In this document: piece after piece, positions 4,756 to 29,905 of the stretch | Layout: each line of letters starts with the position of its first letter | Numbering within the stretch: the stretch's first letter is position 1 | Notes under the pieces: model-generated | The model's input: the letters and a program-made list of their open reading frames with translations, nothing else | Database searches by the model: none | What the model was told of the DNA's origin: nothing | Translations under genes and position numbers: made by a program | Assembly (NCBI GenBank): GCA_964640155.1 | Contig: CAZXEQ010000006.1 | Span: forward strand, 99,013-131,012 | Direction: 5' to 3' | DNA from: an uncultured bacterium | Lineage (GTDB): Bacteria > Auribacterota > JACPWU01 | Length of the DNA stretch: 32,000 bases

Positions 4756-4757
4756 AA

Positions 4758-7280: not shown

Positions 7281-7372
7281 TGCTAACTACCGTCAATTTA
7301 ATTATGAACTAAATACTAGCTTCAAAACAAGCTTTCACAAGTTTCTACAAGTTTTTATAGTGCTTTAGCATA

Positions 7373-7388
7373 GTCCCCGTCAGGGGAC
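7373..7388 (-). terminator. Stem-loop just downstream of gltD (weak terminator candidate)
   Basis: gtcccc-gtca-ggggac is a 6-bp GC-rich stem 15 nt after the gltD stop. No clear U tract follows, so intrinsic termination is uncertain. Confidence 0.3.
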
Positions 7389-7402
7389 ACGATGTTACTG
7401 TT

Positions 7403-8887
7403 TTAAGGCAGTTCCGTCGATCCCATGAGGTAACGATCGCATTCTCGCGCAGCACCGCGGCCTTCGTTGATGGCCCAGACCACAAGGCTTTGTCCACGCC
7501 GGGCATCTCCTGCCGCAAATACACCTTTAAGGTTGGTGGTATATTTTTCCCAGTCAGCTTTGATATTGCTACGAGCATCTTGCTCAAGCCCCAAATCTTT
7601 TAAGAGTTGCTCTTCCGGTCCTAAAAATCCAAGAGCCAAAAGCACCAATTGGGCAGGCCAGATTTTTTCAGAGCCAGGAACTTCTTTCATCACAAATTTT
7701 CCGTCAGCACCTTTTTCCCACTTAATTTCAACGGTATGGACTTCTTTGAGTTTCCCATTCGCATCTGCAACAAAGCGTTTGGTAGAAATAGAATAAGCTC
7801 TGGGATCCTTTCCAAAAACAGAAGCTGCTTCTTCTTGGCCATAATCCATTTTATAAACCTTAGGCCATTCAGGCCACGGATTGTCTGTTGCTCTTTGCAT
7901 GGGAGGTTGAGGCAAAATTTCAAATTGAACTAAGCTTTTGCATCCATGTCGCATGGCCGTTGCGACACAATCTGTCCCTGTATCTCCTCCTCCAATCACA
8001 ATCACATCTTTTCCTGCAGCAGAAATAAATTGGCCATCTTGATGCCGACTATCTAATAAACTCTTTGTATTTTTATGCAAAAATTCCATGGCAAAATGAA
8101 CACCTGAGGCGTTACGTCCTTCGGTTGTTAAGTCACGAGGTTTAGTTGCACCCGTGCAAAGCACCGTAGCATCAAATTCTTGAAGTAATTTTTTGGCAGG
8201 ATAATTTTTCCCCACTTCTGTATTTGTAACAAATTTTACACCTTCTTTTGCCATCAAATCCACACGCCGCTGAACAATTGTTTTATCTAATTTTGGATTT
8301 GGAATGCCGTACATTAAAAGGCCACCCACGCGATCTGATCTCTCAAAAACAGTGACCTCATGACCTGCTTTATTTAATTGCGCGGCACAGGAAAGACCCG
8401 CAGGACCGGAACCAATCACCGCTACTCGTTTTCCTGTTCTTATCTTCGGGATTTCAGGAGTCACCCAACCTTCATCAAATCCTTTATCAATGATAGAACT
8501 TTCAATATTTTTGATGGTAACAGCAGGTGCACTCATACCCAGCACACATGAACCTTCGCAAGGAGCTGGACAGACACGTCCCGTAAATTCCGGGAAATTA
8601 TTTGTTTTATGCAACCGTTCTAATGCTTCTTCCCACAATCCTCTAAAAATCAAATCATTCCATTCCGGAATCAAATTATTAATAGGACAGCCTGAAGCCA
8701 TACCACTGATCAAAGTTCCCGTATGGCAAAATGGAATACCACAATCCATACAGCGCGCACCTTGCTGTTTTAATTTATCTTCTGGCAAATGAAGATGAAA
8801 TTCATTCCAATCCTGCATCCTTTCAGAAGCAGAACGGTCTTGTGGCAATTCTCTTGTATATTCTAAAAATCCTGTTGGTTTACCCAT
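7403..8887 (-). CDS. gltD: Glutamate synthase (NADPH) small subunit
   Basis: 494 aa. [15 protein letters not shown]...[12 protein letters not shown]...CPAPCEGSC Fe-S motifs, and the dinucleotide-binding motif [14 protein letters not shown]. It lies directly downstream of gltB. Confidence 0.95.
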
Positions 8888-13638: not shown

Positions 13639-13719
13639 GTCATTCCCGAAGGTTTGTATCGGGAATCCATTTTTAGCAAAGACAAACATGGATCCCCGAT
13701 TAAAGCACTCGGGGATGAC
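13639..13719. repeat. Pair of REP/MITE-like palindromic units in inverted orientation
   Basis: gtcattcccgaaggtttgtatcgggaatccat (13639-13670) and atggatccccgattaaagcactcggggatgac (13688-13719). Each forms an 8-bp stem (attcccga/tcgggaat, atccccga/tcggggat). Related copies lie at 16722-16759, 27716-27747 and 27764-27795. Confidence 0.85.
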
Positions 13720-15418: not shown

Positions 15419-16087
15419 TCATGCATAAGTTGACGTAATATCATGAATAAGTTTTGGAATATAGGTCTCCATCCACTGACTTTCTTTTCGAGTCAAGACT
15501 TCCTTTGTCCCCCGACCAGAAGTAAGCTGTAAACATCGTTGAAGCTGAACAATGAGTTCCTTCACCTCCAAACTTTTGGCGAGATATTCCAAGGCCAATT
15601 TAAATTCTCCTGGATAAGTTTGATGAAGAAGACAAAGATCATAAAGATCGGTAGGCTCAATACGATCCACAATGCAAGAGAGCTTTTCAAGAACCATGTC
15701 TTTCTCGCACAAAATAGGACATCGCAATTGAAGATCGTAAAGCAATGTCGTAGGATGCCAAATCTTTCCAATATCCACTTTGATTTCTTTTCTCTTTGGA
15801 TAACTGACAAAGATTTGGCAAAAATGTTCCCCTCGTCGAGTGATACGACAGCTTATTTTTTCTTTCTTACATTTACTGACAACTTCCAGCATAGCCTTAT
15901 AGCTTGAAATGTCCTCTCGAGAAGACAGAACATCCACATCTCTGCTCAAACGAGACACTTTCGGAAGTCGCAAAGTTAACCAAGTTCCACCCGCTAAAGC
16001 ATAGTTTTCCTTGATCAAGGGACAAGCCAAGATCCAAGCAGCCAATGCGAGAATATCTTCTTTTGAAGGAAGATTAGGAATGCTCAT
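15419..16087 (-). CDS. Nucleotidyltransferase AbiEii/AbiGii-family toxin (type IV TA-like)
   Basis: 222 aa. YALAGGTWLTLRLPKVSRLSRDVDV resembles the GGTAL...R-S-D-D NTase core of AbiEii (DUF1814). It overlaps the upstream HTH gene by 14 nt. Confidence 0.65.
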   Translation of the reverse strand: MSIPNLPSKEDILALAAWILACPLIKENYALAGGTWLTLRLPKVSRLSRDVDVLSSREDISSYKAMLEVVSKCKKEKISCRITRRGEHFCQIFVSYPKRKEIKVDIGKIWHPTTLLYDLQLRCPILCEKDMVLEKLSCIVDRIEPTDLYDLCLLHQTYPGEFKLALEYLAKSLEVKELIVQLQRCLQLTSGRGTKEVLTRKESQWMETYIPKLIHDITSTYA

Positions 16088-16472: not shown

Positions 16473-16588
16473 GATAAATAATTATACACTATTGTGAATA
16501 ATTAAAAATAAAAATGACGGACCCCCATTCCGAGGATCAGTAATAGTTTAGCTACAAGAACTAGCCCTCAAGATTTTTATAGCCCTTC

Positions 16589-16674
16589 GGGCTTTTGCAG
16601 TCCCTTTGGGATAGGGTTAGGGTTCGCTGTACCTTTTTATTATTAATTTTTATCCTAAAGGACTGCAAAAAGCC
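16589..16674. repeat. Long imperfect inverted repeat (about 20-nt arms, about 43-nt AT-rich spacer)
   Basis: gggcttttgcagtccctttggg (16589-16610) against cctaaaggactgcaaaaagcc (16654-16674). The arms pair except for two single-nucleotide bulges. A small hairpin agccc-ttc-gggct precedes it at 16581-16593. Confidence 0.7.
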
Positions 16675-16721
16675 TGAGGAGAGGTACTACCCAGTAGGTA
16701 TAGTAGCTTTGCTATTCGTTG

Positions 16722-16759
16722 GTCATCCCCAAGTGCCACTATCGTGGTCGGGGATCCAT
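16722..16759. repeat. REP/MITE-like palindromic unit, same family as 13688-13719
   Basis: gtcatccccaagtgccactatcgtggtcggggatccat shares the termini GTCATCCCC...TCGGGGATCCAT with the other copies. Confidence 0.75.
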
Positions 16760-16822: not shown

Positions 16823-16975
16823 TTACGCCATCATCTGAGTATATTCCAGAGAACGTCTGTCATTTCCTATATCGTGTGGGGCTTGAGAAGCAGGAGGTAA
16901 AAGATATTTTTCCAATGCTTTCTTCAGATTCTCTTGAGAACATTCCTTTTTCCTTCAATTTTTAGTGTGGATAAG
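16823..16975 (-). pseudogene. Frameshifted remnant copy of the 3' end of the giant ORF
   Basis: The minus-strand translation of 16823-16933 is ENLKKALEKYLLPPASQAPHDIGNDRRSLEYTQMMA-stop. The giant ORF ends EDLKKVLEKYLLPPASQGQHEMGNQRHAQEYAEMMA-stop, giving 24/36 identical by hand alignment. A 31-nt identical DNA core lies at 16882-16912 and 17575-17605. Upstream similarity (LKIEGKRNV against LKGENI) is in a different frame, and an in-frame stop intervenes. Confidence 0.7.
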
Positions 16976-17005
16976 CTATACTTAAGAATAGGAAGGAGAT
17001 CAGTA

Positions 17006-17221
17006 ATGCGTAAGAATAAATTTTTAGTTGTCATTGAAAAGGATGAAGATAATATGCTCGTTGCAACTGTCCCCGCTTTAAAAGGTTGCCATACACAAGC
17101 CAAAAACCTTCCTATCTTACTTGAACGCATTAAAGAAGCCATCCAACTTTGTCTTGAAGTTGAACGTCCTAAAGTTGTACCTCTTGAATTCGTCGGACTC
17201 CAAGAGGTTGAAGTCAACTGA
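17006..17221 (+). CDS. hicB: HicB-family antitoxin
   Basis: KFLVVIEKDEDNMLVATVPALKGCHTQAKNLPILLERIKEAIQLCLE is the HicB/UPF0150 fold signature. RBS ggaaggag lies 7 nt upstream of the ATG at 17006, and the track's 16934 start is unlikely. The stop overlaps the hicA start (ATGA-type, 17219-17223). Confidence 0.85.
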   Translation: MRKNKFLVVIEKDEDNMLVATVPALKGCHTQAKNLPILLERIKEAIQLCLEVERPKVVPLEFVGLQEVEVN

Positions 17222-17445
17222 TGCACAGGCTGACGCCTCTCAAACCCGCTGAAATCATTCGCATATTGAAACGTCACAGTTTCACCCCCATTCGCCAAAA
17301 AGGAAGCCACATCTACTTTCGACACATGGACGGTCGCTCCACTGTTGTTCCCTTGCATAAGGGGGAAGACATCGGCAGAGGACTCTTGCGCAGTATATTG
17401 CGGGACATCGAGCTTTCCTGGGAAGAATTCCTTTCCAAAAAATAA
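17221..17445 (+). CDS. hicA: HicA-family mRNA interferase toxin
   Basis: 74 aa. LKPAEIIRILKRHSFTPIRQKGSHIYFRHMDGRSTVVPLHKGEDIGRGLLRSILRDI is a canonical HicA/YcfA sequence pattern. Confidence 0.9.
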   Translation: MHRLTPLKPAEIIRILKRHSFTPIRQKGSHIYFRHMDGRSTVVPLHKGEDIGRGLLRSILRDIELSWEEFLSKK

Positions 17446-17515: not shown

Positions 17516-20500
17516 TTACGCCATCATCTCAGCATATTCTTGAGCATGTCGTTGGTTTCCCATCTCATGCTGGCCTTGAGAAGCAGGAGGTAAAAGATAT
17601 TTTTCTAATACTTTCTTGAGATCCTCTTGACTCCTAATATTTTCTCCCTTTAAATTAATAAGGACTGAATTCCAATAACTGAATCTGGTAATCATTTGAC
17701 AGATTAATTGTCTCTGATCGGTTGTAACAGGAACAGGGGTATTGGGAATTACTGATCCAGATGTTGTCATCTCTTGAAATATTTTTACTTCTCCATTCGA
17801 CATGTTAAGCTCAATACTTTCAGACTCATCATCTAGCTTTGACCAAATAATTTGTGCCAATGAAGCAATCGTTCGATCTTGTAAATTTTTCTGAATACCT
17901 TTAATTTCAAAATGAGCCTTTCGAACACGCTCAGCCTCTTCCACATCTTCTAATGCTTGTAATCTTTCAGCAAGAACTTCGGCTACTGCTTCTACCCAAT
18001 AGTGATTAAGCATTCCAATATCATGCCCATTCATCACCATACGGCGAGGTCTTCCTTCTGTCTCTCTAGAAGCAGCCTCTACGGTTTCAGCTAATTGTGT
18101 TACATCCAATTTTTTAATGTTCAAAAGTTGAATTGCTAAGGCTTTTGCAAGAGCTTTATTTAATTCTTCTAATTCTAAGGCAGTTACCTCTGCAGCTTTA
18201 GCCACTTGTTGAGTGGTTCTTGGATCTTTTTTATATCCATTATTTTTTCTCCATCGATGTCGCTCCACTTCTATTCTCAAAAGAATATTCAAAAGCTCTG
18301 GTCTTTCTTTAGCTAAATATTCTAATGTGTCTCGTCCTATGTATATACTTGGCAGTAGAATTGATTCTGTATTTCGTTCCATTGCCTTGCCCTGATATCC
18401 CATGTGAGCAAAGCTGATTCCATCCAGAAGCTCCATGGACGTATGTCCATGATTCCTTACTTTTGTTTCAGATAGAGCGCTAGTCCCCGAAGAGGAATCC
18501 ATGGAGGTGATTCCATGGATTTCCTCGTAGTGGGATTCATTTTTCTTAGAATCTCCTAAAGAAACAAAAGCTTGATCGCCCAATGCAAGAAGTCGCATAT
18601 TTTCTAAAGCCTTCTTCACTGTACGATCTAAGTCTCGATAAGCATCTGTCATGGTGTAATGTTTTAAAGCTTGATCTAAAGAGGACGTTTCTTCTCCCTT
18701 TTTAGCTAGCTCTCCTAATTTATTAAACATCACACTCACTGTTTTTCCCACTACTTGAGTTTCTCTTGTCGCTTTAACTTTAGTCAGAGTTTCACTCAAA
18801 GTTTTTCCTACTGTTTGATCACTGATAACGCCTTGAGAAAAATTATCATCATCAAGAGAAAGTGGTGTTCTTCGAGCCTTAAGCAAAGCCAGCCTCTTTC
18901 TAATAGTCACGACTTTGCTTTCTTTTCCAGCAAGGGTATTAAACATCCCATTAAAGCCTGGGGCTAAAATTTCGCTCAAAAAATCATCTGCAACCGTTGG
19001 AATTGCAGCGACCACCTCTTTCAATCTTGAAACAGCATTTTCTGGGGTTGTATCCGGTGAGTCAAGCCAGTCCGTTCTAATTTCTCTAACTAAGGTTTTA
19101 AATTCATCCGCCTCAGCAGAACTAGATATTTGAAAGCTAGTTTCAAGATGCCTTATCACTAGTATAACTTTTGGCACATTAGCGAAAGTTACATTCTCAC
19201 TTTCAAACCAATTCAATGCTGTTTCAAAAACAAATCTTCTTCTATTTTCATTCCCTGCATAATCTGACAATTCCATTATATGGACTAATATATAAGAAAT
19301 ATTTTCACCTACTACCTTTGTATTCTCAATCCATAGAGAAGCTAAACTAAAAAAGTTTGAAATTTCCCCAACAACCCTATTCTCTAATTCTTTTTCTGAA
19401 TCACCTTGCTTATGCATATTTATCATTATGTCATTAAGAGCTCTAAGCCTTTTTTTAAATTTCTCGCTAGAATAGAGCGCCACCTCCAATGCTATTACAA
19501 CGGTATCCGTATTCAGCTTTCCACTTTGAACCCACTTTAAAAGTGTTTTTAAAGTTTCTATACTTTCACGATTAGTAAACCTTTTCAGATCTGTGATTGA
19601 AGTTAACAATTTTTGAATTTTTTTAGAGTTTGCTTCTGTTATAAGATTTCTTTGCCTCATCTCAGAAAGTAATTTTTCAACCAAAGCATTTTTGAGAACA
19701 AGATTTACAGGATATCGTTCTTGAACTTCATCTTCTGTAGCTTCTCCATTAGTCTCATTGGCCATCACAATATGTCCAATCTCATGTTCCCAAAATTCTC
19801 TCTTGGCTTCTCGTGAAAGACTTCGAATGAATTGTACTTGTACTGGTGAAAGATAAATTTGGCGCAATTGATGATTGAAAGCTTCTCCACCTCGACCTGG
19901 ATGAGCAACAAGAAAACCATCAAATTGGCTGAGGCTTGAAATTTCATAAACACTTACATTATTCGCTTGAATGAACCCATCAGGATCCAAATCTTTAAGC
20001 TCCTCAGATGTTATAGCTCTTTGAACCTCACTAATAAAAGCTTCACGAATTGTCGTATTAACAGCCTCATGTTGTACTGCTGACAATTCTTCACCAGTAA
20101 TTGTAACGGCGCCAGCAGTATTTATAGGCTGTGTACCTTTTCTATTTAAATAACTTTCATAATCAATTGGGCTAAGCTGTTTAAGCAATGCCCGTAGAGG
20201 AGGCATACGCTTGTTCCAATCAAGAGCTAAAATTCTGACTATTTCTTTTTTTGTTGTTTCCAGAGTTTTTGAGTCTTTGCCTTCAAGAGCCTTCATTATA
20301 TAGTACAAACATGAAAAAACTGTACTATCGGAATTGGTTATCTTTCTTAGTTCTTCTATATATTCCCCACATGTCTCAATCTCCAATTTTCTTCTTCCTT
20401 CTCCATCAGTATTCGAGAAAAGACGAAGCAAATCAAAAAAGCCCTTTTTAAAAAAGATTAATACATCCTCTCGATCCATCTTTTGAACAATATCTGTCAT

Positions 20501-23500
20501 TAACAGGAGAATTGCCTGTCGATCTTCTGGCGAAAGGTTTAAACTGTTTAAAGATTTCCTCCATGATCGAATGTCTCTCCAATAAAGACCAGAAGAGCCC
20601 CATTTCTCTATCATAGCGAATAATAATTGTTCATATTCTCCATATTCTTTTGCATTTTGAATTTCTTTGGATATAAAGGATTCATCAGATTCTACGTCAT
20701 CTCGAATGGGTATAAATCCTAAAACACATCGACGAAGCTCTCTCGTTAATTCCATTTTTGTTTCATCTTCACAATATTCTGGTATAGCACTTAACAAACG
20801 TGGTTCAATCAAATCAAGGATTCTAAATGAAAATGGATAATCACTTTCTTCTAAATTTTCTAGAATCACTTGTCGCATCACCTGTCGAACTTGACTCAAG
20901 GGCAAATTCCCTTTTGTACTTTCTTGAATAACTGCCAAGCGTGTCAAGATTCCAAAGACCAAACGATCAGAAAACTCCATTTCCCAATAGCAAGGTTTTT
21001 CTGGCTTGTTTACTCTGTCTAATGTTTCTTGGAGGACTTGCCATTGCTGATGATTTAATAAATCGCGATCCATTTGTTGAGGTGTTGTATCAAGGCGGTT
21101 GGTGCGTCTAAGAATACCCGTATTAACTTGAGCACCTCGCCTAAAAGGTATAAAAATATGGTTTGAAAATGCCATTCCTACTGTTCCTCTGCTGCGCATA
21201 AAAAATTGAAGACCTACCCATCTCCATCCGATTCTCCAAATGCGAGCTGCATTTCTATCATCTGGGTCAGACAAAATCATTTTTCCAGACGGATCCATCA
21301 TAATATTAACTCTAAATCTACCAAATTGATCTGCATCTCTCGAGCAAGCTTGATAAAGACGATAAAACTCATCAGAAAGTAGCAACTCTACATTTTCTTC
21401 TATAATTTGATTCATCTCATTGGAAGGAGCTAAAAGCCTTTCATGACTTGCTTGAGCCAATATGGTTATTTCATCAGTTAATCTGCTACTTCTAGGAATT
21501 GACGAATTTCCAATCCCAAACCTAGTGTTTAAAAGCCATTCTTCCCTCTGCTGAGGAGTCCCTTGAAACAATTTCTTCAACTCTCTCATGGAGGGCCCAT
21601 CAAGTCCCATGTGTATATCTGATCGCTCCACAGCCACATGAAACAGAAATTTTCTTAATTCTGAAGGATTCTCAAGAAGTTCAAGATTAAGAAAAATTTG
21701 ATTTCGCTCAACAGAATAGTGGGCTCTTTGCCCTTTAATAAAAATGATCTTAGTGTTTTCTAGATGAAATTCTATTTCTAAGTCCTTGATAGCATCATCA
21801 AGCACTTTTAAATGTGCTGGAGAAATTTGAATTTTTTGTTCTTGCACTTTAATGGGCCCAACTTTACGTATATTACCTTGGGTATCACTAAGCTGCGTGT
21901 TATAGTAAAGATCTATTTGGGCCAATTCTCTCGAAGGTTTACCGCGCTTCTCCACTTTTGTTACGATCCCTACACATGCAAATTCTCCATTCACCAAAGC
22001 ATCGCGTATTCCACCGTCATCACTGAGCAAATGATCATAATCAGCTTGGATGACCCCCTTCTGCAATTTGGATCCCGTCAATGTCACATAACGATTGGAG
22101 GCAATATGCATAACAAGACCTGATAAGAAAATAGCCCAGGGAATCAAACTAGCTGAAAAAATAAGAGGAGCAACAAGACAAGCTACAATACCAATAGTAG
22201 ATATAATCGAAGGAATTAATATTTTCTCAAACAATGTTCTCTTTCTTCCTTCTAGTGGTGCATGATCCTGAAAAGCATGAAGTGCGACAAAAAGAATACG
22301 AGCTGCTACATAAGCCCATGGACCTAGAAGAAAAGTTAACATTAATAACCCTTCTTCAATCACAGGAACAATAAAATCTTCTTTTGTATCTTGACTGATA
22401 GGCTTCATCAGTAACACATTCAATGGAGAAACCAGTGCATCTGTTATTTTGTAAACAGGAATCAAAACACCTTTGCCTGCCTCCACAGACTTAACAGGCT
22501 CTGCCGATCTTGTCTCATCAGATTTAATCTCTACTTCACCTTCCCGTTCTCCACCTTTCTGCATCACGCCGCCTTCCATTGCATCAAAAGCCAGTGGACC
22601 ACTGACAGGACGTGTCAGCGTTGGTAAATTTCGGCCGATAGGATCTGTGCTTCTAAAACCCCTATTAGGAGAGTCTGAACGACCGAGAATACAAGTACTT
22701 ACACCCGTATAAAATCCGGCAACCTGCTCTGCATACGCACATGAAAATGTTAGAGAAACACCATTCCATATACCAACTGCAGCACGAGCAGTGACTTCAT
22801 GTTGATTTGGGAAAACCGTAAAAAGAGGTTCATTGGGAGGTGTGGCATATCGATACGCTGCGCCGATCAAAACAGGAAGATCTGATGGCACCCATGTAAT
22901 ACTTCCTCCATAAATAGATGATTCGGGTATTCCACCACTTGGTGGACGATACACATAAATTCTCTTTCCTGCATATCCCCATGCCGAAAGGCCCCAAGTT
23001 GAAGTTAATCCAACTACCACTCTCCAATCTAATGTTTCATAAGGGATATCCACAAGCGAAACCCTCATTCCTGACCAAACACGAACAGGGGCTGATTCTG
23101 GCAATGCGGCCCTTAAAGCAGCAACATTAAAATGAAAATTTGTATATAATCCTGACAACACAAACCTATCTGTCGGAATATCTGATCTAGGAGCTGAAAG
23201 AGAACTATAAGGGTATATAACCCCTGCTCTACCTCCAAAGTCACTTGTAGGTAAACCAACTATTCTTCCTCCTAATCTTAGTGCAGCTGCCGTATGAGGT
23301 GATTCATATGTCATATTTGCTTGAATATCTGCTCCAGGTGCAAAATAACCGCCTGGGGTTAAACTTCCTAACAATCTTAGATCACTGGCTATTGAGAGAC
23401 GATCTGAGGGACGATCTATGAGATTTCCCCAGAAAGAAGCTCCTAAATTGACTACAGCCCAAGATAAGGTGCGAATATTTCCTCGATGTCGATACGGAAT

Positions 23501-26500
23501 ATTTTGCCAGGTCAGCCCTGCATAAATAGGCATATGTCCATTAAATAATCCGTCCCATATTCTGACATTCGCTGTTGCTTCACGTAAATTAACTTGTGGG
23601 TCGACAGGCCGCGGCCCAATAAAAGTTCTTGTTAGTGGATCAATATCGGGTGCCTCATTTGGAAAAGAAAGAGAACCTGAAAAGCGATAAGTAAAGCGCC
23701 TTTCTTGAGCTGGTGTCAGTGTGGGCGTTATTGTTGATGTTGCTGATGCTTCAGATTCCGAAGCTGGTGGAGTTAATCTTCCTACTGGCAAAGAAAACCT
23801 ACCTGACCCTATAGGTGGTAAATCTGAAATTTGGGTTTGTGATACAGTCGTTTCTTGAACAGATTGTAGGGTCTCTTCTTCACTTGTTGTTGGCATTTCT
23901 ACCGGTTGAAGTCTTTCTGCAGCAGGAGCCGTAACTGTTGGAGGAACGGGCTGCGCTTGAGCAATCAAAGGCGCACTTAAAGCAGTTGCAACAGCAATAG
24001 CCAGGGCAGCAACATTAGATTTTATAGAAGATCTTTGAATAGCAGAAGGACGGGCATTTTTGCGTGGTTCTAAATTAACATCTTCTTTAATAACCTCTCC
24101 TTTACCTTTTTGCATTCGACTTCGATCTTGTCTTATTCCTGCATCTCGTGTTACACCCTGTGGAGTTTGTCTAAGGATGACCGTTGGATCCTCTGAACCC
24201 AAAGCTCTCTGAAAACGTTCGATATCTTCTGGTCGATCGAACCAAGGTATCAAAATACGTACAGGAATAGAACTGCCCCGTAAGCGATTCGCAAACTCTC
24301 CTGCAGCTTCTTCTTGTGCTGTCACAACTTCTGTAGAATAATGCATAGGTACAGCAACTACCGGTCTGATCACCGCTGCTGCTTCAGCAGCCTGCTGAGC
24401 ATCCATTGTAAATCCATGACCTCCAACGGGCAAAAGTGCTATATCCAGGTTATCATTTGAAAGATCACGCATTTCCGGAATAAAGTCTGTGTCTCCTGCA
24501 TGATAAAGCCTTCTTCCATCTGGAGTTTCAATCACATATCCTACCCAGTTATTTTCACGAGGATGAGTATTAGCAATAGGGTCAGGGTTCGTAGTATAGG
24601 CTGGCACTGCTTTAATCTTTATTCCCTCAATTTCGAGATGATCTCCAGGCCTTACCACATGCACGACATTCGGTGCTCCCGCCGCTCTCAAACGATCTGC
24701 TACATCCTGCGGTGCCACAAAAATAGTGTTTGGTCTAGAAATTAATGGAAGATATTGTCGAGGATTGAAATGATCATAATGTGAGTGCGTGATGAAAATA
24801 ATATCAGCAGGATGAGAACTTTCGCTATCGGACAACCAATAGGGATCAATATAAACTGTTTTATCTCCCACTTGAAAACGAAAACTTGATTCCCCATGCC
24901 AGAGCAAGTGCTTCACCAGTTCGTTCAACTCTTCCGGCGTCCGAGGTCTTCTTGAAGAAAGTCGAATGACGTCTGGAGCAGCATCACGCATATGTGCAAA
25001 TGCATTAGCAGCAGTCGGAGGAGCCCGCAATTGGGGTGGTGGTGTATTCGGACTTCCCATAAACATAAGAGATAGAGATATGCAAGCAGCAGCAATTGCA
25101 AAAATAGCAACAAGACAGCCTATTGACCCTCTATTTGCAAAGAAAACCTTTGAATCTTTTTTCGCTGTAGTTGCAGGAGAAAGTTTTTCCTTAACTAGAG
25201 AATGAAGCGCTTCGGCATGAGCTAAAGCATAAACTCGCTTTGGATCTTTTTCATCAGGAAACTTTTGAGCAATTTCCTTTTTCGCTTGATCATACGCTTC
25301 AATAAAACTTCTTACGACCTCAGGACTCATGGCCTGAACTTGCTCTTTAAACCTTCTAGACACAAACTCATCCTCAAATCCTGTCTCAGCCAATGCAGCA
25401 AGGGTGTGATAAATGTTGTTGGGATTATCTTTTGGAAGAGATGCGTCAAGCGGCAAAATTAGCATTTCATAGATTTCATGGAAAGCACCAATGGCATTGC
25501 CGGATGTGACAAAAACATGCAAAGTACCACTATCAATGTAAGAACCAGCCCGAATGGGCAACCCTTGCTCATCTCGAATGATTTCACTTTCTGGAATAGT
25601 ATGAAATTCTATTCTTTGTGCAGGTAGTGGTCGCTCACTTTGTCGACTAAGCTCAGCTAGGACTTCTTGTACATTTTCTCCACGCATCAGCCTTTGCACG
25701 AGAACAACATCTCTTTCAAAATCCGGAAACGCTGCTTTAAATTGTGGTGTCTGCGCTTGCTTGCCAAGGACCAAGCTTTGAGCAAGGCTCGTTGCATTTT
25801 CCATTACAGGAAACTTCTCAATTCCCTTTTCCTTTACTTTAGCTTCAAACTCTATTTTCTTCATTTTAGAGCCAATGGGTTTGGCGGTGGCAGACTTTGA
25901 TTGAATATTCTTGGGTTTTAATACCATAGCTCCAACAACAAATTTCGAACCCTGTGATCCAGTGGAGGTCCCCACCGGAACTCTCTCCCATTCCCAAAAG
26001 GTTTTTCCATCAATCCAGGGACGTACCTGATAATCAAATTTTTTCTCAACTTCTCTTTCTAATATATCTGTACCAAGCATCACCATGGGATTACCCTGTA
26101 AGATCTGGCCAGTCCAGTATCTTTGCATCCTAATTTCTGCAAGTGTATCTGAAAGATAAACTCTTCCTTGAGGCTGAACCCATCTTGCGAGTTGTTGAAT
26201 ATGGCGCGAAGGAAGCTCTGTTGCGAGCCGATTAAGAGCAGCTAAAAAGGAATGGTTATTTAAAATATTAGGACCAAACTTTTTTGAAAATAAATTGTGA
26301 CTGTATTGATAAATAAAAGAAGCCAACTGTGTCATTACAAGGGATGAAACCACATAAGAAGCTTGATAAGAACTCAAATCTATATTACGGATTTCAAGAG
26401 ATTGAATTAATTTTATTAACTGTGCTACAGCATATTCTGGCAAAGCAGAAGTTTTTACAATTTCTTCCACACGAATTGAAAAATCAGCCAAAACACCACT

Positions 26501-29017
26501 TAAATCCTCTACTCTGACAACAAATTTTTGACTTAAAGGGGAGCGACCTTTTTCTACTAAATATTGATCTAATTCTCGTAGAGTTGTTCGAACACCTTCT
26601 TCATCTATATCTACTACCACAATTCTTTCAAATTGATTGGCGAGTTTTTCTAAACCTTCAGGGGTATACTCCATACCATTTCCAAGCCCTAATAAAAGAG
26701 CTGTCCCAGAAAGACCCTGAGCTCCTTCTAGAATAAGATCGCGACTTCTTTGAATATGTCCTTGATATTCGGCGGCATAACGAACCAACCATTCCCTAAG
26801 CCCTCTATTTTGTTTCTGAAATTCAGCGATGATACCTTCCGTAGGTTTTGGTTGTTTCTTCACCCACGCCTTAGCCAGTACCACAAGCCCAGGTTGATTT
26901 TCGCCATAGCGTTTGATCAGAGCTTCTGTGATCTCTGCAGCATCACCTGTTGTTTCTCTTAACTCCTCAAGTTCGGAAAAAAATTGAGTAACGATGGTGT
27001 CAGGATGTGCTTTTTTGAGTGATTCAATGAGATTTGTTACTTGCTCTAAACTTAATTTCTCTAATGCCCCTGCCCATTGATCCAGTGCATCTTTGATGTT
27101 CCCTTGTACATTCATCCAAATTTGTACAAGTAAGTCTGCATCTGTCTGTTCATATCGACCTGCTGCAAATCTCTTTAAGATACCCCCATACAACACCGCT
27201 GGGGTAAGCGTCCATCTCCCATCTTCTGTTTTTTCATGTGCAGCTAGTTTCTTTTGAGAAAATTCTGTTTGCTCAAAATCATACGGGCCTTGCATACCTT
27301 TTTCATAAATACTTTCATCCACTTTGCCCTGCATGTTAGGGATTACAACAGCGTAAGATATTCCCTTCTCGTCTAAGATTCTTTCAATACCTTCGGTGTG
27401 AAAGCCACCTGTTACTAAAACTGTAGTTCGTATCTCGTAATTCGTATTTCGTAAAAATACTTGTTCTTCTATACTTCTTGCTTCCTGTCTCCTGCTTCGT
27501 GCTTCTATTTGCTTTAATGCATTTTCCGCCATAACTTGATCCCGAGCTAAAGCTAGATCGTAAAAATGAAGGGATTCGTTGAGGAGGGATGCTAAACTAG
27601 ATGTCATTGCGAGTCCCGATGTTTTTAATTGGGACGAAGCAATCTGACTCAAAGCATCATTCAATTGGATCGCCACGTCGGCCCTCGGCCTCCTCGCGAT
27701 GACATTATCTTTATATGGATCCCCGACAGAAACACTCGGGGATGACAAACCCTCAAATTTCCTGTCATTCCCGAAAGCTTGTATCGGGAATCCATTTTTG
27801 AGTCGTTCATTCAGTTCCAAAATAAAATTTTTAATATTTATTTCTTTAACCTTTTCCAATCCTTTTCTCGTCGCTTTCAGCGCTATCAAATCCTTAATCA
27901 ATCCCCACTCTCTTACCATACGTTCTTCTTGAATTACGTTGTGGGCTTTTGAAAGCTCTAGCATCAAAGTATTGATCTTTTGCTCTAGCTCTTCATAGAT
28001 AGATTCTGATTTAAGATCTTCTTGATGCAGCTGAAGCTTGTAGTAATGAGAAAGTCCTGGATAGTTTTCTTCTAAGGATAATCCATTTTTTTCATAAGCC
28101 TCTTTCAAATGAGTCAAATATTCCAATATTCCCATTCGACCTAATCGATATTCTAAACTCCATTTCACCATTTCTTTTAATTCCTCATTTTTGAGACGAT
28201 GGCTTAATTCATCTAAAAGCTTCTTTAAGTCTGATTGAATTGTTTTGCTTTGTATGGCTTTAGCTGTTTTTAGGATTTCAAGCATTTCTTTTAAGTGGCC
28301 ATCCAGCTTCTGTCCATTCTTTTGTAATAAAACATCTAATTGTATTAATGCTTCGTCTAATTTCAGCTCGCCTTCTTTAAGTTGATTTTGAAGGTTTAAA
28401 AGCTCTTTCATCTCGTGAATGTAAGTCTTTTCGATGATGTTTTTGATTTGTTCATCAATTTTGTTTATTTCAGAAGAAAGTTCTTTGGCAAGTCTGCGTA
28501 CTTTAAGAAAGGCTTGTAGATTTTCTATGTAAAGCTTGCTCTCTTCTATTCCATATAGATCCAGTGAGTTCTGAAGCCCTGAACGCAATGCCGCGTATTC
28601 TGCACCAGTAAGATAACCCTCTTTTAGAAATTGCAAGCCCACTTTGCCCCGTACTTTATCCTCTGGAAAAGCCTTCAAAAGTTCTAAATCAAATTCTCCT
28701 TCTGCTCCTTCCATAAAGACATTTTTAAGGCCCAGCTCTTTTTGAAATACTTCAAGGGTCTTAGCAATGTTGATTTGGGCTTCTTCTTGGCAATGTAAAT
28801 CACGAATGAGAATAAGGAGAGAATCCTTATTTTTACCTTCTTTGATTTTGGAAAGGGTGACATCCGATAGTTTCAATTGTTTTAGTTGATCTAAAACTGA
28901 GAGGTTTTTAAGTGTAGATGATGATGAAGCCGCTGAAGAAAGAACCTCTGCCATCGATTGATGGTCTGGGAAAATACAGTTCGCAAAGAATATAAATATT
29001 AAAAGGATTCGCAACAT
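17516..29017 (-). CDS. Giant (3,833 aa) multidomain, multi-TM protein of unknown function
   Basis: Uninterrupted 11.5-kb ORF, ATG at 29017, TAA at 17516-17518. Domain-level motifs are listed as separate sub-features. I recognise no overall family. Confidence 0.85.
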   Translation of the reverse strand: MLRILLIFIFFANCIFPDHQSMAEVLSSAASSSSTLKNLSVLDQLKQLKLSDVTLSKIKEGKNKDSLLILIRDLHCQEEAQINIAKTLEVFQKELGLKNVFMEGAEGEFDLELLKAFPEDKVRGKVGLQFLKEGYLTGAEYAALRSGLQNSLDLYGIEESKLYIENLQAFLKVRRLAKELSSEINKIDEQIKNIIEKTYIHEMKELLNLQNQLKEGELKLDEALIQLDVLLQKNGQKLDGHLKEMLEILKTAKAIQSKTIQSDLKKLLDELSHRLKNEELKEMVKWSLEYRLGRMGILEYLTHLKEAYEKNGLSLEENYPGLSHYYKLQLHQEDLKSESIYEELEQKINTLMLELSKAHNVIQEERMVREWGLIKDLIALKATRKGLEKVKEINIKNFILELNERLKNGFPIQAFGNDRKFEGLSSPSVSVGDPYKDNVIARRPRADVAIQLNDALSQIASSQLKTSGLAMTSSLASLLNESLHFYDLALARDQVMAENALKQIEARSRRQEARSIEEQVFLRNTNYEIRTTVLVTGGFHTEGIERILDEKGISYAVVIPNMQGKVDESIYEKGMQGPYDFEQTEFSQKKLAAHEKTEDGRWTLTPAVLYGGILKRFAAGRYEQTDADLLVQIWMNVQGNIKDALDQWAGALEKLSLEQVTNLIESLKKAHPDTIVTQFFSELEELRETTGDAAEITEALIKRYGENQPGLVVLAKAWVKKQPKPTEGIIAEFQKQNRGLREWLVRYAAEYQGHIQRSRDLILEGAQGLSGTALLLGLGNGMEYTPEGLEKLANQFERIVVVDIDEEGVRTTLRELDQYLVEKGRSPLSQKFVVRVEDLSGVLADFSIRVEEIVKTSALPEYAVAQLIKLIQSLEIRNIDLSSYQASYVVSSLVMTQLASFIYQYSHNLFSKKFGPNILNNHSFLAALNRLATELPSRHIQQLARWVQPQGRVYLSDTLAEIRMQRYWTGQILQGNPMVMLGTDILEREVEKKFDYQVRPWIDGKTFWEWERVPVGTSTGSQGSKFVVGAMVLKPKNIQSKSATAKPIGSKMKKIEFEAKVKEKGIEKFPVMENATSLAQSLVLGKQAQTPQFKAAFPDFERDVVLVQRLMRGENVQEVLAELSRQSERPLPAQRIEFHTIPESEIIRDEQGLPIRAGSYIDSGTLHVFVTSGNAIGAFHEIYEMLILPLDASLPKDNPNNIYHTLAALAETGFEDEFVSRRFKEQVQAMSPEVVRSFIEAYDQAKKEIAQKFPDEKDPKRVYALAHAEALHSLVKEKLSPATTAKKDSKVFFANRGSIGCLVAIFAIAAACISLSLMFMGSPNTPPPQLRAPPTAANAFAHMRDAAPDVIRLSSRRPRTPEELNELVKHLLWHGESSFRFQVGDKTVYIDPYWLSDSESSHPADIIFITHSHYDHFNPRQYLPLISRPNTIFVAPQDVADRLRAAGAPNVVHVVRPGDHLEIEGIKIKAVPAYTTNPDPIANTHPRENNWVGYVIETPDGRRLYHAGDTDFIPEMRDLSNDNLDIALLPVGGHGFTMDAQQAAEAAAVIRPVVAVPMHYSTEVVTAQEEAAGEFANRLRGSSIPVRILIPWFDRPEDIERFQRALGSEDPTVILRQTPQGVTRDAGIRQDRSRMQKGKGEVIKEDVNLEPRKNARPSAIQRSSIKSNVAALAIAVATALSAPLIAQAQPVPPTVTAPAAERLQPVEMPTTSEEETLQSVQETTVSQTQISDLPPIGSGRFSLPVGRLTPPASESEASATSTITPTLTPAQERRFTYRFSGSLSFPNEAPDIDPLTRTFIGPRPVDPQVNLREATANVRIWDGLFNGHMPIYAGLTWQNIPYRHRGNIRTLSWAVVNLGASFWGNLIDRPSDRLSIASDLRLLGSLTPGGYFAPGADIQANMTYESPHTAAALRLGGRIVGLPTSDFGGRAGVIYPYSSLSAPRSDIPTDRFVLSGLYTNFHFNVAALRAALPESAPVRVWSGMRVSLVDIPYETLDWRVVVGLTSTWGLSAWGYAGKRIYVYRPPSGGIPESSIYGGSITWVPSDLPVLIGAAYRYATPPNEPLFTVFPNQHEVTARAAVGIWNGVSLTFSCAYAEQVAGFYTGVSTCILGRSDSPNRGFRSTDPIGRNLPTLTRPVSGPLAFDAMEGGVMQKGGEREGEVEIKSDETRSAEPVKSVEAGKGVLIPVYKITDALVSPLNVLLMKPISQDTKEDFIVPVIEEGLLMLTFLLGPWAYVAARILFVALHAFQDHAPLEGRKRTLFEKILIPSIISTIGIVACLVAPLIFSASLIPWAIFLSGLVMHIASNRYVTLTGSKLQKGVIQADYDHLLSDDGGIRDALVNGEFACVGIVTKVEKRGKPSRELAQIDLYYNTQLSDTQGNIRKVGPIKVQEQKIQISPAHLKVLDDAIKDLEIEFHLENTKIIFIKGQRAHYSVERNQIFLNLELLENPSELRKFLFHVAVERSDIHMGLDGPSMRELKKLFQGTPQQREEWLLNTRFGIGNSSIPRSSRLTDEITILAQASHERLLAPSNEMNQIIEENVELLLSDEFYRLYQACSRDADQFGRFRVNIMMDPSGKMILSDPDDRNAARIWRIGWRWVGLQFFMRSRGTVGMAFSNHIFIPFRRGAQVNTGILRRTNRLDTTPQQMDRDLLNHQQWQVLQETLDRVNKPEKPCYWEMEFSDRLVFGILTRLAVIQESTKGNLPLSQVRQVMRQVILENLEESDYPFSFRILDLIEPRLLSAIPEYCEDETKMELTRELRRCVLGFIPIRDDVESDESFISKEIQNAKEYGEYEQLLFAMIEKWGSSGLYWRDIRSWRKSLNSLNLSPEDRQAILLLMTDIVQKMDREDVLIFFKKGFFDLLRLFSNTDGEGRRKLEIETCGEYIEELRKITNSDSTVFSCLYYIMKALEGKDSKTLETTKKEIVRILALDWNKRMPPLRALLKQLSPIDYESYLNRKGTQPINTAGAVTITGEELSAVQHEAVNTTIREAFISEVQRAITSEELKDLDPDGFIQANNVSVYEISSLSQFDGFLVAHPGRGGEAFNHQLRQIYLSPVQVQFIRSLSREAKREFWEHEIGHIVMANETNGEATEDEVQERYPVNLVLKNALVEKLLSEMRQRNLITEANSKKIQKLLTSITDLKRFTNRESIETLKTLLKWVQSGKLNTDTVVIALEVALYSSEKFKKRLRALNDIMINMHKQGDSEKELENRVVGEISNFFSLASLWIENTKVVGENISYILVHIMELSDYAGNENRRRFVFETALNWFESENVTFANVPKVILVIRHLETSFQISSSAEADEFKTLVREIRTDWLDSPDTTPENAVSRLKEVVAAIPTVADDFLSEILAPGFNGMFNTLAGKESKVVTIRKRLALLKARRTPLSLDDDNFSQGVISDQTVGKTLSETLTKVKATRETQVVGKTVSVMFNKLGELAKKGEETSSLDQALKHYTMTDAYRDLDRTVKKALENMRLLALGDQAFVSLGDSKKNESHYEEIHGITSMDSSSGTSALSETKVRNHGHTSMELLDGISFAHMGYQGKAMERNTESILLPSIYIGRDTLEYLAKERPELLNILLRIEVERHRWRKNNGYKKDPRTTQQVAKAAEVTALELEELNKALAKALAIQLLNIKKLDVTQLAETVEAASRETEGRPRRMVMNGHDIGMLNHYWVEAVAEVLAERLQALEDVEEAERVRKAHFEIKGIQKNLQDRTIASLAQIIWSKLDDESESIELNMSNGEVKIFQEMTTSGSVIPNTPVPVTTDQRQLICQMITRFSYWNSVLINLKGENIRSQEDLKKVLEKYLLPPASQGQHEMGNQRHAQEYAEMMA
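19772..19786 (-). other. Giant ORF: HExxH zinc-metallopeptidase motif
   Basis: REFWEHEIGHIVMANE. The HEIGH codons are atgtccaatctcatg on the plus strand. The context is GGEAFNHQLRQIYLSPVQVQFIRSLSREAKREFWEHEIGH. Confidence 0.55.
22080..22400 (-). other. Giant ORF: CPBP (CAAX protease / bacteriocin-processing, Abi) type intramembrane protease signature
   Basis: VIEEGLLMLTF has the EE of motif 1 at 22352-22357, but no Arg at +5. LFVALHAF is FxxxH, 26 residues later. LVMHIASN is HxxxN, about 57 residues later (22094-22114). All three lie within hydrophobic helices. The spacing matches the CPBP family. Confidence 0.5.
22700..23700 (-). other. Giant ORF: beta-strand-rich, outer-membrane-barrel-like region
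   Basis: Repeated amphipathic, aromatic-ended segments: FTYRFSGSLSF, RTLSWAVVNLGASFW, ADIQANMTYE, AAALRLGGRIVGL, FVLSGLYTNFHFNV, VRVWSGMRVSLV, DWRVVVGLTSTWGLSAWGYAGKRIYVY, VLIGAAYRYA, GVSLTFSCAYAE. A Ser/Thr/Pro-rich linker precedes the region. Confidence 0.45.
23949..24115 (-). other. Giant ORF: internal Met plus Sec-type signal-peptide-like segment
   Basis: MQKGKGEVIKEDVNLEPRKNARPSAIQRSSIKSNVAALAIAVATALSAPLIAQA-QP has a basic n-region, a hydrophobic core and an AxA (AQA) cleavage-type motif. The Met codon is at 24113-24115, in frame. Confidence 0.55.
24330..24895 (-). other. Giant ORF: metallo-beta-lactamase-fold hydrolase domain (UPF0173/Lactamase_B_2-like)
   Basis: VYIDPYW...ADIIFITHSHYDHF (the HxHxDH motif lies at about 24770-24790), then YHAGDTDF and LLPVGGHGFTMDAQQAAEAAAVIRPVVAVPMHY. 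Confidence 0.85.
25050..25130 (-). other. Giant ORF: transmembrane segment
   Basis: GSIGCLVAIFAIAAACISLSLMFMGSP is an uninterrupted hydrophobic stretch followed by a Pro-rich linker. Confidence 0.7.
26140..26750 (-). other. Giant ORF: class I SAM-dependent methyltransferase fold
   Basis: Motif I ALLLGLGNG (about 26674-26700). The acidic end of beta-2 is IVVVDID (about 26603-26623), and beta-3 is RVEDLSG. Motif IV-like ASYVVSSLVMTQL, and post-IV LARWVQPQGRVYLSD (compare LKPGG-x-l-x-sD). Confidence 0.65.
27428..27504. repeat. Two heptanucleotide tandem tracts inside the giant ORF
   Basis: 27428-27455 reads tcgtatc tcgtaat tcgtatt tcgtaaa. 27477-27504 reads cttgctt cctgtct cctgctt cgtgctt. They are translated as ...EARSRRQEARS...RNTNYEIRTT... 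Confidence 0.8.
27603..27795. repeat. Four consecutive palindromic repeat units inside the giant ORF, read through in frame
   Basis: The units are 27603-27644 gtcattgcgag...gacgaagcaatc, 27669-27704 gatcgccacgtcggccctcggcctcctcgcgatgac, 27716-27747 atggatccccgacagaaacactcggggatgac and 27764-27795 gtcattcccgaaagcttgtatcgggaatccat. The last two match the intergenic units at 13639-13719. Confidence 0.85.
28943..29017 (-). other. Giant ORF: N-terminal hydrophobic leader (signal peptide or signal anchor)
   Basis: MLRILLIFIFFANCIFPDHQSMAEV has a basic residue followed by a hydrophobic run. FANC is only loosely lipobox-like. Confidence 0.6.
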
Positions 29018-29285
29018 ATTCTCTTTTCTTTTTTGATGATTAGCTTACAGAACCTACAAGCAAAAAGTAGTATACCATAAAAAGCTCAAAACTCCAAATC
29101 TAGAGATAATATAATTTTATAATATACTCTTAGAGAATATATTATAAATAAAACAAAACTTATATTCCAATGAATATACCAATGCTAGGATAACCGATAG
29201 ACTCTTCATTAGATATTTTGACTTCATTTCCACGAGAAACCAGAGTATCATAGCTTCCAGAAGCCAAATAGAAAGAGAACTCCAA

Positions 29286-29564
29286 ATGAACTCCACCCTG
29301 CTTAAGGGACTATTAGAAGAACGAATTGTTTCCCTAGGTTCTAAAGATCTATCAAGATTTCCATTTCCCATCAAAGGGATTGTGAGAATATTAAGCAAAA
29401 AGGGAGACACGGTGGCCATTCTTTTCAGCAAAGAAGCGTTGGAAGAATTCGAAGAAGAACTGGATGCTACAGATCCCTCATTTCTCGCTTCACTCGAAGA
29501 TTCTCGCAAGTCAGGTCTGACCTCAGCTAAAGAACTCAAGAGGAAAATGGGTCTTAAGAAATGA
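29286..29564 (+). CDS. Phd/YefM-like antitoxin candidate
   Basis: 92 aa. GIVRILSKKGDTVAILFSKEALEEFEEELDATDPSFLASLEDSRKSG resembles Phd/YefM-type antitoxins. The stop overlaps the RelE-like start (ATGA at 29561-29564). Confidence 0.55.
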   Translation: MNSTLLKGLLEERIVSLGSKDLSRFPFPIKGIVRILSKKGDTVAILFSKEALEEFEEELDATDPSFLASLEDSRKSGLTSAKELKRKMGLKK

Positions 29565-29812
29565 CTTATGAGTTCACCAAACATGCTGAAAAGGAATTCC
29601 TCAAACTTCCGCTCAACATACAAGTGCGCGTTCTTAAAAAGATTGAATCTTTTCTTCGTACAAGCAATCCTCTTTCCTTTGCCAAACCCTTGGTTGGAAC
29701 GACTAAAACCTTCAGATTTAAAATCGGAGATTATCGAGCTATTTTCGATTGGCAAAAAGATTACATTCTTATATTGAGAGTTGGGCATCGAAGAGAAATT
29801 TACAAAAAATAA
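29561..29812 (+). CDS. relE: RelE/ParE-superfamily type II toxin (paralog of 475-753)
   Basis: 83 aa. FRFKIGDYRAIFDWQKDYILILRVGHRREIYKK carries the same GDYR...GHRREIY signature. Confidence 0.85.
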   Translation: MTYEFTKHAEKEFLKLPLNIQVRVLKKIESFLRTSNPLSFAKPLVGTTKTFRFKIGDYRAIFDWQKDYILILRVGHRREIYKK

Positions 29813-29905
29813 TTCAAGACGATCTAGATTTGCAATCACCCCCAACACCAGAAAAACAATCGCCCAAACCAGAAGCAAACCCATCAGACCACATTCGAAA
29901 AATTC

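Follow-up and report, generated by a model that had tools for sequence, protein, structure and literature searches.

Hairpin repeats, probably a variant of the NTS/SRM kind, are translated in frame within a loop of a giant protein of an uncultured Auribacterota bacterium

We found four hairpin-forming repeat units lying back to back inside the coding frame of a giant gene of an uncultured bacterium of the Auribacterota. The gene lies in a 32,000-nucleotide stretch of contig CAZXEQ010000006.1 (assembly GCA_964640155.1, positions 99,013 to 131,012), the whole of which is called the window here. The four units are very probably copies of a mobile hairpin repeat, a variant of the NTS/SRM kind (NTS, a repeat of Neisseria; SRM, Ssn-related motif), which was gained in frame, within a loop of the encoded protein, after this lineage had split from its nearest sequenced relative. 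The 193-nt four-unit stretch is translated without a stop as residues N408-T472 of the 3833-residue open reading frame (ORF). These are about 65 residues, and the peptide is identical to that reported by an earlier reading of the same DNA made from its letters alone (hereafter the sequence-only reading). The units and the features around them are listed in Table 1.

All seven units of the window, which has a G+C content of 40%, share the general form GTC-AT[stem]-loop-[stem']AT-C(C). Class-1 units have a YCCCGA/TCGGGR stem and a 9-nt loop, and their oriented flanks and core read YGTC-AT[YCCCGA]-loop-[TCGGGR]AT-CCAK. Class-2 units (u1 and u2) have an outer ATYGCGAG../..GCRAT stem enclosing an inner hairpin, and their outer stems, ATTGC..GCAAT in u1 and ATCGC..GCGAT in u2, differ by a compensatory change. 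The class-1 pattern GTCATYCCCGA-N5-16-TCGGGRATCC matches the window four times, against 0.00 expected from 100 dinucleotide shuffles, and the class-2 pattern GTCATYGCGAG..GCRATC matches twice, again against 0.00 expected. Folded as single-stranded DNA (ssDNA), five of the seven units form hairpins with 8-bp stems (z -3.1 to -4.1, with -4.11 for u4, -3.64 for u3 and -3.15 for u1). The four hairpin units do lie at 27603-27795 inside the coding frame, where the sequence-only reading had seen them. Read in the sense of the gene, they follow one another as u4, u3, u2 and u1, that is, antisense, sense, sense and antisense. That reading had also recognized two of the unit types, in opposite order, in the lysR-gltB spacer, and the comparison agrees. 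The unit at 13639-13670 has the ATTCCCGA..TCGGGAAT stem of u4 and is identical to it at 30 of 32 positions (94%), and the unit at 13688-13719 (-) has the ATCCCCGA..TCGGGGAT stem of u3 and matches it at 28 of 32 positions (88%). With orientation checked, the u3/u4 pair is head-to-head (- then +) and the spacer pair is tail-to-tail (+ then -). The further copy proposed at 16722-16759 is indeed a related class-1 unit. Rfam gave no match at the units, either at gathering scores or with E-values up to 5, and a tRNA/tmRNA scan found none. A terminator reading was rejected, because a T run is absent and four copies lie inside an ORF. The canonical unit resembles a type I-E CRISPR repeat; a CRISPR-like reading was rejected as well, because the copies are irregularly spaced, inverted and without spacer arrays.

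Table 1. Repeat units, giant ORF and associated features of the window
Feature	Position	Strand	Description
Giant ORF	17516..29017	-	3833 aa, intact; start confirmed in an independent sample (L125)
N-terminal module	27293..28900	-	About aa 40-575; large uncharacterised family heading giant proteins
Two 7-nt tandem-repeat arrays	27423-27454 and 27474-27505		In coding frame; 4.6 copies each, of GTAATTC and CTTCCTG
Unit u1	27603-27648	+	GTCATTGCGAGTCCCGA..TTGGGACGAAGCAATCTGAC; nested hairpin, outer class-2 stem ATTGCGAG/CGAAGCAAT around inner class-1-like TCCCGA..TTGGGA; antisense to giant gene; translated as SQIASSQLKTSGLAMT
Unit u2	27667-27703	-	GTCATCGCGAGGAGGCC..GGCCGACGTGGCGATCC; class-2 hairpin, GTC-ATCGC..GGCC-GAG-GGCC..GCGAT-CC; sense to giant gene; translated as VIARRPRADVAIQ
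Unit u3	27715-27746	-	GTCATCCCCGAGTGTTTCTGTCGGGGATCCAT; class-1 hairpin, GTC-ATCCCCGA-(9 nt)-TCGGGGAT-CCAT; sense to gene; translated as (L)SSPSVSVGDP
Unit u4	27764-27795	+	GTCATTCCCGAAAGCTTGTATCGGGAATCCAT; class-1 hairpin, GTC-ATTCCCGA-(9 nt)-TCGGGAAT-CCAT; antisense to gene; translated as GFPIQAFGND
lysR-gltB spacer doublet	13639..13719	+ and -	Class-1 units 13639-13670 (+) and 13688-13719 (-), tail-to-tail
Single class-1 unit	16722..16759	+	Longer loop; intergenic

We then compared the units with the NTS of Neisseria. This repeat, CGTCATTCCCGCGMAVGCGGGAATCYRG, includes dRS3, ATTCCC-N8-GGGAAT (Chenal et al. 2025, PMC11893778). The 94-residue GIY-YIG protein SsnA binds it and cuts it a few nucleotides 5' of the motif, only as single-stranded DNA; cleavage depends on the three bases 5' of the palindrome, and binding on the C just 3' of it (PMC11893778). 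NTS-like Ssn-related motifs flank ssn genes, which encode single-domain GIY-YIG proteins (cd10448), in many phyla (PMC11893778). The class-1 units of the window have a dRS3-like ATTCCC..GGGAAT core, and the stems of u1 and u2 differ from it. All seven window units have GTC directly 5' and C directly 3' of the palindrome. At positions outside the search pattern, 150 copies from elsewhere show a pyrimidine at -1 (93%), A at +1 (93%) and G or T at +2 (85%), as in the ..AATCYRG of NTS. When hairpins were sought by stem alone, among stems that the search pattern does not cover, the TCAT/ATCC flanks were present in about 60% of them. In addition, a single-domain GIY-YIG gene (97 aa, PF01541 E-value 9e-17) lies at 7260-7550 of an Omnitrophota locus (L021) with unit doublets on both sides, one of these units differing from u3 by a single base. 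Two GIY-YIG copies lie among units in L115 and one GIY-YIG ORF was found in L006, both loci being confirmed against PF01541, and the GIY-YIG ORFs in the unit-bearing L105 and, adjoining units, in the predicted viral L157 come from a local HMM search only. For the GIY-YIG genes, NCBIfam gave no family above cut-off.

The units are dispersed and not specific to the giant gene, as the sequence-only reading had supposed. In addition to the seven window copies, the exact class-1 pattern is found in at least 120 genome stretches of many phyla in a scan of one genome per species. Their hosts include Nitrospirota, Omnitrophota, Auribacterota, many groups of the Candidate Phyla Radiation (CPR), Ignavibacteria, Elusimicrobia, Zixibacteria, Dehalococcoidia, several proteobacterial classes, Bacteroidota and others. 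The pattern also occurs in 74 further viral-contig stretches of IMG/VR. A structure-aware detector run over the genome loci (810 kb) gave 299 generalised units, compared with 9 after shuffling. In these units the stems covary and the flanks are constant (CCCGA/TCGGG, CCCGC/GCGGG, CCGGC/GCCGG, ACCCGA/TCGGGT and others). Canonical GTCATTCCCGCGAAAGCGGGAATCC copies are present in the same loci, together with 12 class-2 copies (u2-like ones, for example, in L057). Tail-to-tail arrangement dominates among 99 adjacent pairs (72, with 15 head-to-head and 12 tandem), and loop lengths in 150 copies of other genomes are bimodal (5 nt, n=46; 9 nt, n=83). Most units lie between genes. At the median, the longest frame that stays open across a unit is 92 codons long, compared with 324 codons at random positions, and frames of at least 300 codons enclose 10% of the units but 55% of random positions.

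Several side observations were made in these loci. The predicted viral contigs L135, L142, L165 and L199 (IMGVR_UViG_3300028837_002970) are rich in units; some viral contigs have at least 10 copies, one of 39 kb among them. Some units are found within longer tandem repeats (L093, L032 and L076), with periods of about 205 nt in Nitrospirales (at least 6 copies), of 203-227 nt, and of 124 nt in Azospirillaceae, where canonical NTS units alternate with them. Copies that are read in frame were found outside the present protein family, namely a doublet separating Ig-like domains in an ORF with at least 1994 residues in Marinamargulisbacteria (L117, 4450-4514), one unit in an ORF of at least 1318 residues in Doudnabacteria (L006, 3534-3560), and a doublet forming the C-terminal tail of a histidine kinase in Omnitrophota (L021, 3656-3720).

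We then investigated the protein into which the four units are translated. An N-terminal signal-like segment, a conserved module and a metallo-beta-lactamase (MBL) domain (residues 1371-1560) could be assigned in it, and the long rest could not. Within the module, the insert comes after the invariant E103/G104 and before the TGGFH motif (536-540), and it ends 12 residues before a conserved FYDxAxxRD motif (485-493). The invariant family residues on both sides of it are intact (D73, C76, Q81, E103, G104, F485, Y486, R492, D493 and G537-H540). An AlphaFold2 model of the module built from 38 sequences (mean predicted local distance difference test score, pLDDT, 76.3; predicted template modelling score 0.72) replaced an earlier 4-sequence model that was too weak (pLDDT 56.9). 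In the 38-sequence model, helices 395-408 and 473-513 directly abut the insert. Taken in ten-residue blocks, pLDDT is 80-96 over about 50-410, except for one block at 73-79, and 82-96 over 471-510, and it falls to 35-50 across 411-470. Residues 416-453 and 462-467 are below 50, and 454-461 are modelled, with low to moderate confidence, as part of a helix (446-461). The model fits a surface excursion between two helices at which no homologue is aligned, and the segment of about 65 residues (408-472) is probably disordered, in an otherwise intact gene. The sequence-only reading had placed the insert in a loop of the module between its Glu motif (E103) and TGGFH. It had called for structure prediction, and the insert does map to a loop in the model, filling the gap between helices 395-408 and 473-513.

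The fold of the module gave no significant hit in Foldseek searches of both models against PDB; the erythromycin-esterase-like protein BcR135 (3b55/2rad) recurs at E-values of 0.2-1.4, a non-significant lead only. A PDB sequence search, Pfam (including a relaxed scan) and NCBIfam gave no meaningful match for the module. The second loop of the module, from the FYDxAxxRD helix to TGGFH (QEARSIEEQVFLRNTNYEIR), is lengthened by the two 7-nt arrays of Table 1, which are not hairpin units. This extension is common to the relative P0009 and is lacking in P0001.

The nearest relative of the window is locus L001 (GCA_041906985.1), in which the module gene, the MBL part, AbiEii, lysR and gltB are syntenic with the window. 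DNA identity is 84% in the module and 92-97% in neighboring genes, and its protein P0001 has 69-72% amino acid identity to the window module. The spacer doublet at 13639-13719 is absent from the syntenic L001 spacer, the L001 alignment ends exactly at the edge of the 16722 unit, and L001 has 153 nt of unrelated sequence at the site of the four units. This 153-nt stretch and a second in-frame insert of L001 (1767-1871) are built from another dispersed repeat, GTTCTCGAC-N4-GCTCGAACAGTA. Thus, the same loop is filled by a different repeat in L001, indicating that two close relatives have different active repeat families at the same sites. The window copies are 88-94% alike, against 84% identity in the orthologous flanks, which indicates either a gain of the units after the split from L001 or their continuing homogenisation. 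The sequence-only reading had proposed aligning orthologues at residues ~408-472, and L001/P0001, P0002 (Ca. Theseobacter exili, Auribacterota) and P0003 (Omnitrophica) all lack such units there, the last two having short unrelated loops. The closest relatives P0001 and P0009 are both without the insert sequence. Judged from its nearest homologues only, the organism would probably belong to Candidatus Auribacterota or a neighboring PVC lineage. Within L001, the GTTCTCGAC-N4-GCTCGAACAGTA repeat lies in frame in P0001 at 1840-1866, 2114-2144 and 2236-2264, where it fills the same loop and a second one, and between genes at 5288-5359 and 5757-5866. The locus is a mosaic, in which the module gene (811 aa) and the MBL gene (647 aa) overlap and about 2000 C-terminal codons of the window ORF are missing. 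Its positions 4441-5136 match 29888-29212 of the window, which there lie upstream of the giant gene.

We then searched for homologues of the module. A word-based search gave just 3 relatives, as if the family were rare, and was superseded by an exhaustive HMMER search, which gave 8801 representatives at E <=0.001 (50% clustering) and 5263 at E <=1e-30. Most of the 150 best-scoring representatives are 1000-7683 residues long, with the module at the N-terminus and varying enzymes at the C-terminus, such as an AceK kinase (P0019), a methyltransferase with HPr (P0071) and the MBL of the window. At least five other family members have such repeats in this or the neighboring loop. Two of them, L070 and L102, came from the DNA pattern scan and then proved to be homologues of the module. 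L070 (24% identity, E-value 4e-25) has a tail-to-tail doublet in the same loop, read as SFPHVFRRES..GSPTKTFGDD and placed 12 residues before FYD, and in L102 (Ca. Auribacterota) that loop contains a single unit, which is translated as GSPDVTSGDD and precedes FYE by 11 residues. P0019 has NGFPTKAFGND in the same loop. In the next loop, P0071 has a canonical NTS doublet (VIPAKAGIH..DSRFRGND), and P0039 and P0041 have the class-2 peptide VIARERSDRSNL. At first sight, the peptides of L070, L102 and P0019 look like residues conserved in distant orthologues, which the sequence-only reading had named as grounds against insertion. They are, however, separate copies of repeats of the same family that differ in number, order, orientation and subtype between homologues, indicating separate events and not conserved coding sequence.

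Among the 150 best representatives (392,773 residues), eight of ten repeat-peptide matches fall within 130 residues upstream of TGGFH, and the remaining two do not rise above background (2.7 matches expected from shuffled sequence). In the giant ORFs of the window, L070 and L102 (7111 codons), all seven units are in this loop and none is elsewhere. On the other hand, no unit was found in 65 module ORFs from 79 metagenome loci (1.04 Mb), which have two strict units altogether, indicating that the insert is not ancestral to the family. Strict patterns were used for these loci because a loose hairpin detector gave only AT-rich false positives. Inserts of this kind are seen in unit-rich genomes, and the pair of helices between which they lie is always the same.

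Several points weigh against the assignment of the four units to a mobile NTS/SRM-type repeat that entered a loop of the protein. The published SRM motif, HGTCWYN(0-2)YYVSBRHN(0-5)WNVSBRGN(0-2)RNCYNB, has no match in the window or in L001. The window units fail it because of their A-T closing pair and their loop length, and therefore we call them a variant of the NTS/SRM kind; the motif matches 88 times in the 120 unit-containing loci. Neither the window nor L001 nor L123-125 has a GIY-YIG gene, and none was found in a further 5 kb of this genome. GIY-YIG ORFs are also scarce in the unit-containing stretches, with 6 in 194 (about 3%), so that the Ssn link rests largely on the literature. A copying mechanism for NTS/SRM elements is not known. 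No target-site duplication, as expected of a MITE, was seen where the spacer doublet and the in-ORF cluster join the surrounding DNA, the empty sites being too diverged for an exact call. The ssDNA folds of u2 (z -0.96) and of the 16722 unit (z -1.66) are weak. The low pLDDT of the insert is partly due to the absence of aligned homologues there. The in-ORF cluster was seen in a single assembly, and the second sample (L125) ends 870 nt short of it.

A likely explanation of these observations is as follows. Copies entered three sites of the genome after the split from the nearest sequenced relative, two of them intergenic and the third at the helix-helix connection of the N-terminal module of the giant protein. 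Stop codons in class-1 units are confined to one of the six reading frames, and an insertion that keeps the frame would therefore merely lengthen the protein. Selection would then keep frame-preserving insertions only where the fold allows extra residues, and we infer that the protein accommodates the 65 residues as a disordered loop that hardly affects its function. A Ssn-type GIY-YIG nuclease acting on ssDNA may recognize, and perhaps spread, the copies. In Neisseria, NTS copies lower the recombination of incoming ssDNA and cluster around variable genes (PMC11893778). By analogy, one might speculate that the presence of four Ssn sites within the gene, on both strands, influences how incoming DNA recombines.

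Alternatively, the loop might be a specific target or a selected hypervariable site, in which units land or are kept for diversity or for Ssn cut sites. This is improbable. The confinement of all seven units of three giant ORFs to one loop speaks for it, as does the concentration of eight of the ten repeat-peptide matches in the two loops on either side of the FYDxAxxRD helix, although these loops account for about 3-5% of the residues. The filling of the same loop by a different repeat family in the sister genome and the behavior of NTS in Neisseria described above point in the same direction. However, the edges of the insert coincide with the ends of two confident helices, and structural tolerance alone explains the constant position. 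Units occur in only about 3% of the 150 best family representatives and in none of the 65 metagenome homologues, and no shared target sequence was seen at the junctions.

It is quite unlikely that the units are repetitive extragenic palindromic (REP) elements or their doublets (REPINs), spread by a REP-associated tyrosine transposase (RAYT) of the IS200/IS605-like kind and unrelated to Ssn. For this speaks that the units are imperfect palindromes of small size that are mostly extragenic; with REPINs they share a conserved 5' head and a strong excess of inverted doublets. But the flanks match NTS (GTC..C) and not the GTAG head of REPs, and it is GIY-YIG genes that lie between units in L021 and L115 and occur in the unit-bearing L105, L006 and L157. 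No Y1 transposase ORF was found in the 194 unit-containing stretches and the window by an iterative search, a weak test since its IS200 TnpA seed was approximate.

The sequence-only reading had offered another alternative, that the insertions mark the beginning of decay of the module, and this may be extended to the whole gene. Such decay is very unlikely here, although the sister locus L001 has the gene split (811 and 647 aa) and rearranged, with about 2000 C-terminal codons gone, and a copy of the 3' end of the window gene lies at 16823-16937. The 11.5-kb frame of 3833 codons is open, the conserved motifs flanking the insert are kept with their invariant residues, and relatives such as P0009 (5549 aa) are intact, leaving this alternative unsupported.

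That the stretch is ordinary ancestral coding sequence from which the intergenic copies derive can hardly be maintained. Similar peptides (G[FS]P....G[ND]D) do exist at the homologous place in L070, L102 and P0019, but the same 30-nt sequence is found in many phyla and mostly between genes, and we regard this reading as refuted by that cross-phylum spread. The absence of the sequence from P0001 and P0009, the variation among homologues and a copy identity (88-94%) above that of the flanking orthologous DNA (84%) also contradict it. An assembly or binning artefact is just as implausible: every genome match listed is a MAG (metagenome-assembled genome), and the Logan contigs assembled for it from short reads are interrupted at 7372 and 28949, but comparable in-frame insertions occur in independent assemblies of different projects (L070, L102, P0019 and P0071), the frame is preserved across 193 nt, and the copies differ at several positions, unlike a collapsed repeat.

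Among the matches listed, all genome records with the class-1 variant are MAGs, and they include names of cultivable genera (Janthinobacterium, Polaromonas and Sphingorhabdus). This restriction to MAGs could reflect host ecology or mis-binned contigs. The last 115 nt of the giant ORF (17516-17630) have an 83% identical copy at 16823-16937, about 690 nt downstream of the gene and about 60 nt from the 16722-16759 unit, and it is to this downstream copy that L001 aligns. This suggests an insertion or rearrangement between 16823-16937 and 17516-17630, including a 144-residue ORF (16924..17358). An inverted repeat with 26-nt arms (16584-16609 and 16654-16679; 77% complementary, 44 nt between the arms) adjoins the 16722 unit in the intergenic region, and neither Rfam nor a tRNA scan gave a match for it. 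Upstream of the giant gene, a 255-residue ORF (29117-29884, minus strand) is probably spurious; on the opposite strand, a ParE-family toxin (83 aa) and a 92-residue partner were called in Logan contigs of the same genome. The neighborhood is rich in toxin-antitoxin genes, with AbiEii at 15419-16087 and HicAB in L001.

If the NTS/SRM assignment is correct, the NTS/SRM-Ssn system would extend to uncultured lineages (Auribacterota, Omnitrophota, CPR, Nitrospirota and others), to hairpin variants missed by the published motif, to inverted doublets and to in-frame residence in genes. The insert also provides a second clear case, after the Rickettsia palindromic elements (RPEs), of palindromic repeats translated within proteins, here with direct evidence that the same structural loop was struck repeatedly in distant homologues. 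GFPxxAFGND, VIPAKAGIQ, DSRFRGND and VIARxxSDxxNL peptides in predicted proteins should be taken as marks of repeats and not of protein homology. Our searches also flag a very large unnamed family of N-terminal domains of giant proteins. More doubtful is the idea that Ssn-type hairpin elements prefer the two loops flanking the FYDxAxxRD helix, either landing there or being retained there more often than elsewhere. If true, protein loops would repeatedly be diversified by a mobile repeat associated with an ssDNA nuclease, which would also bring sites of nuclease action and recombination control into a gene, across uncultured bacteria of the PVC (Planctomycetes-Verrucomicrobia-Chlamydiae) group and others.

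Among known systems, the neisserial intergenic mosaic elements (NIMEs) and Correia elements are comparable in that repeat arrays are bounded by dRS3-type inverted repeats. They are intergenic mosaics of 50-150-bp repeat units, however, and no such units lie between the hairpins of the window. REPs and REPINs resemble the present units as short, mostly extragenic palindromes with a conserved head, inverted doublets (72 of 99 pairs here) and clusters. They differ in the sequence of the head, in being associated with a Y1 transposase where a GIY-YIG gene is found here, and in that REPs are rarely inside genes. The closest likeness in sequence is to NTS/SRM: oriented hairpins with an ATTCCC..GGGAAT core, GTC on the 5' side and C, A and G/T following on the 3' side of the palindrome, present in multiple, mostly intergenic copies across many phyla, and an NTS-gene-NTS layout around a single-domain GIY-YIG gene of about 95 residues, here in L021. 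The present units differ in having an A-T closing pair (CCCGA/TCGGG) in place of C-G and loops of 5 or 9 nt in place of 3, and further differences are the second stem class (ATTGCGAG..), the nested units, the dominance of tail-to-tail doublets, and hosts from uncultured PVC, CPR and Nitrospirota lineages. In-frame genic copies and these phyla are not mentioned in the Ssn paper (PMC11893778). Finally, RPEs are palindromic elements of about 100-150 bp, each encoding a conserved peptide, which are found in frame in unrelated ORFs, are translated, and are thought to sit at places tolerated by the fold (PMC10969869). The sequence-only reading had compared the present case with them, and the comparison is apt for the outcome, an in-frame, fold-compatible and translated palindromic insertion. 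It does not extend to the element itself, since the window units are clustered, 30-46 nt long and of the NTS/SRM type. Thus, the resemblance to RPEs is an analogy of outcome and not of family.

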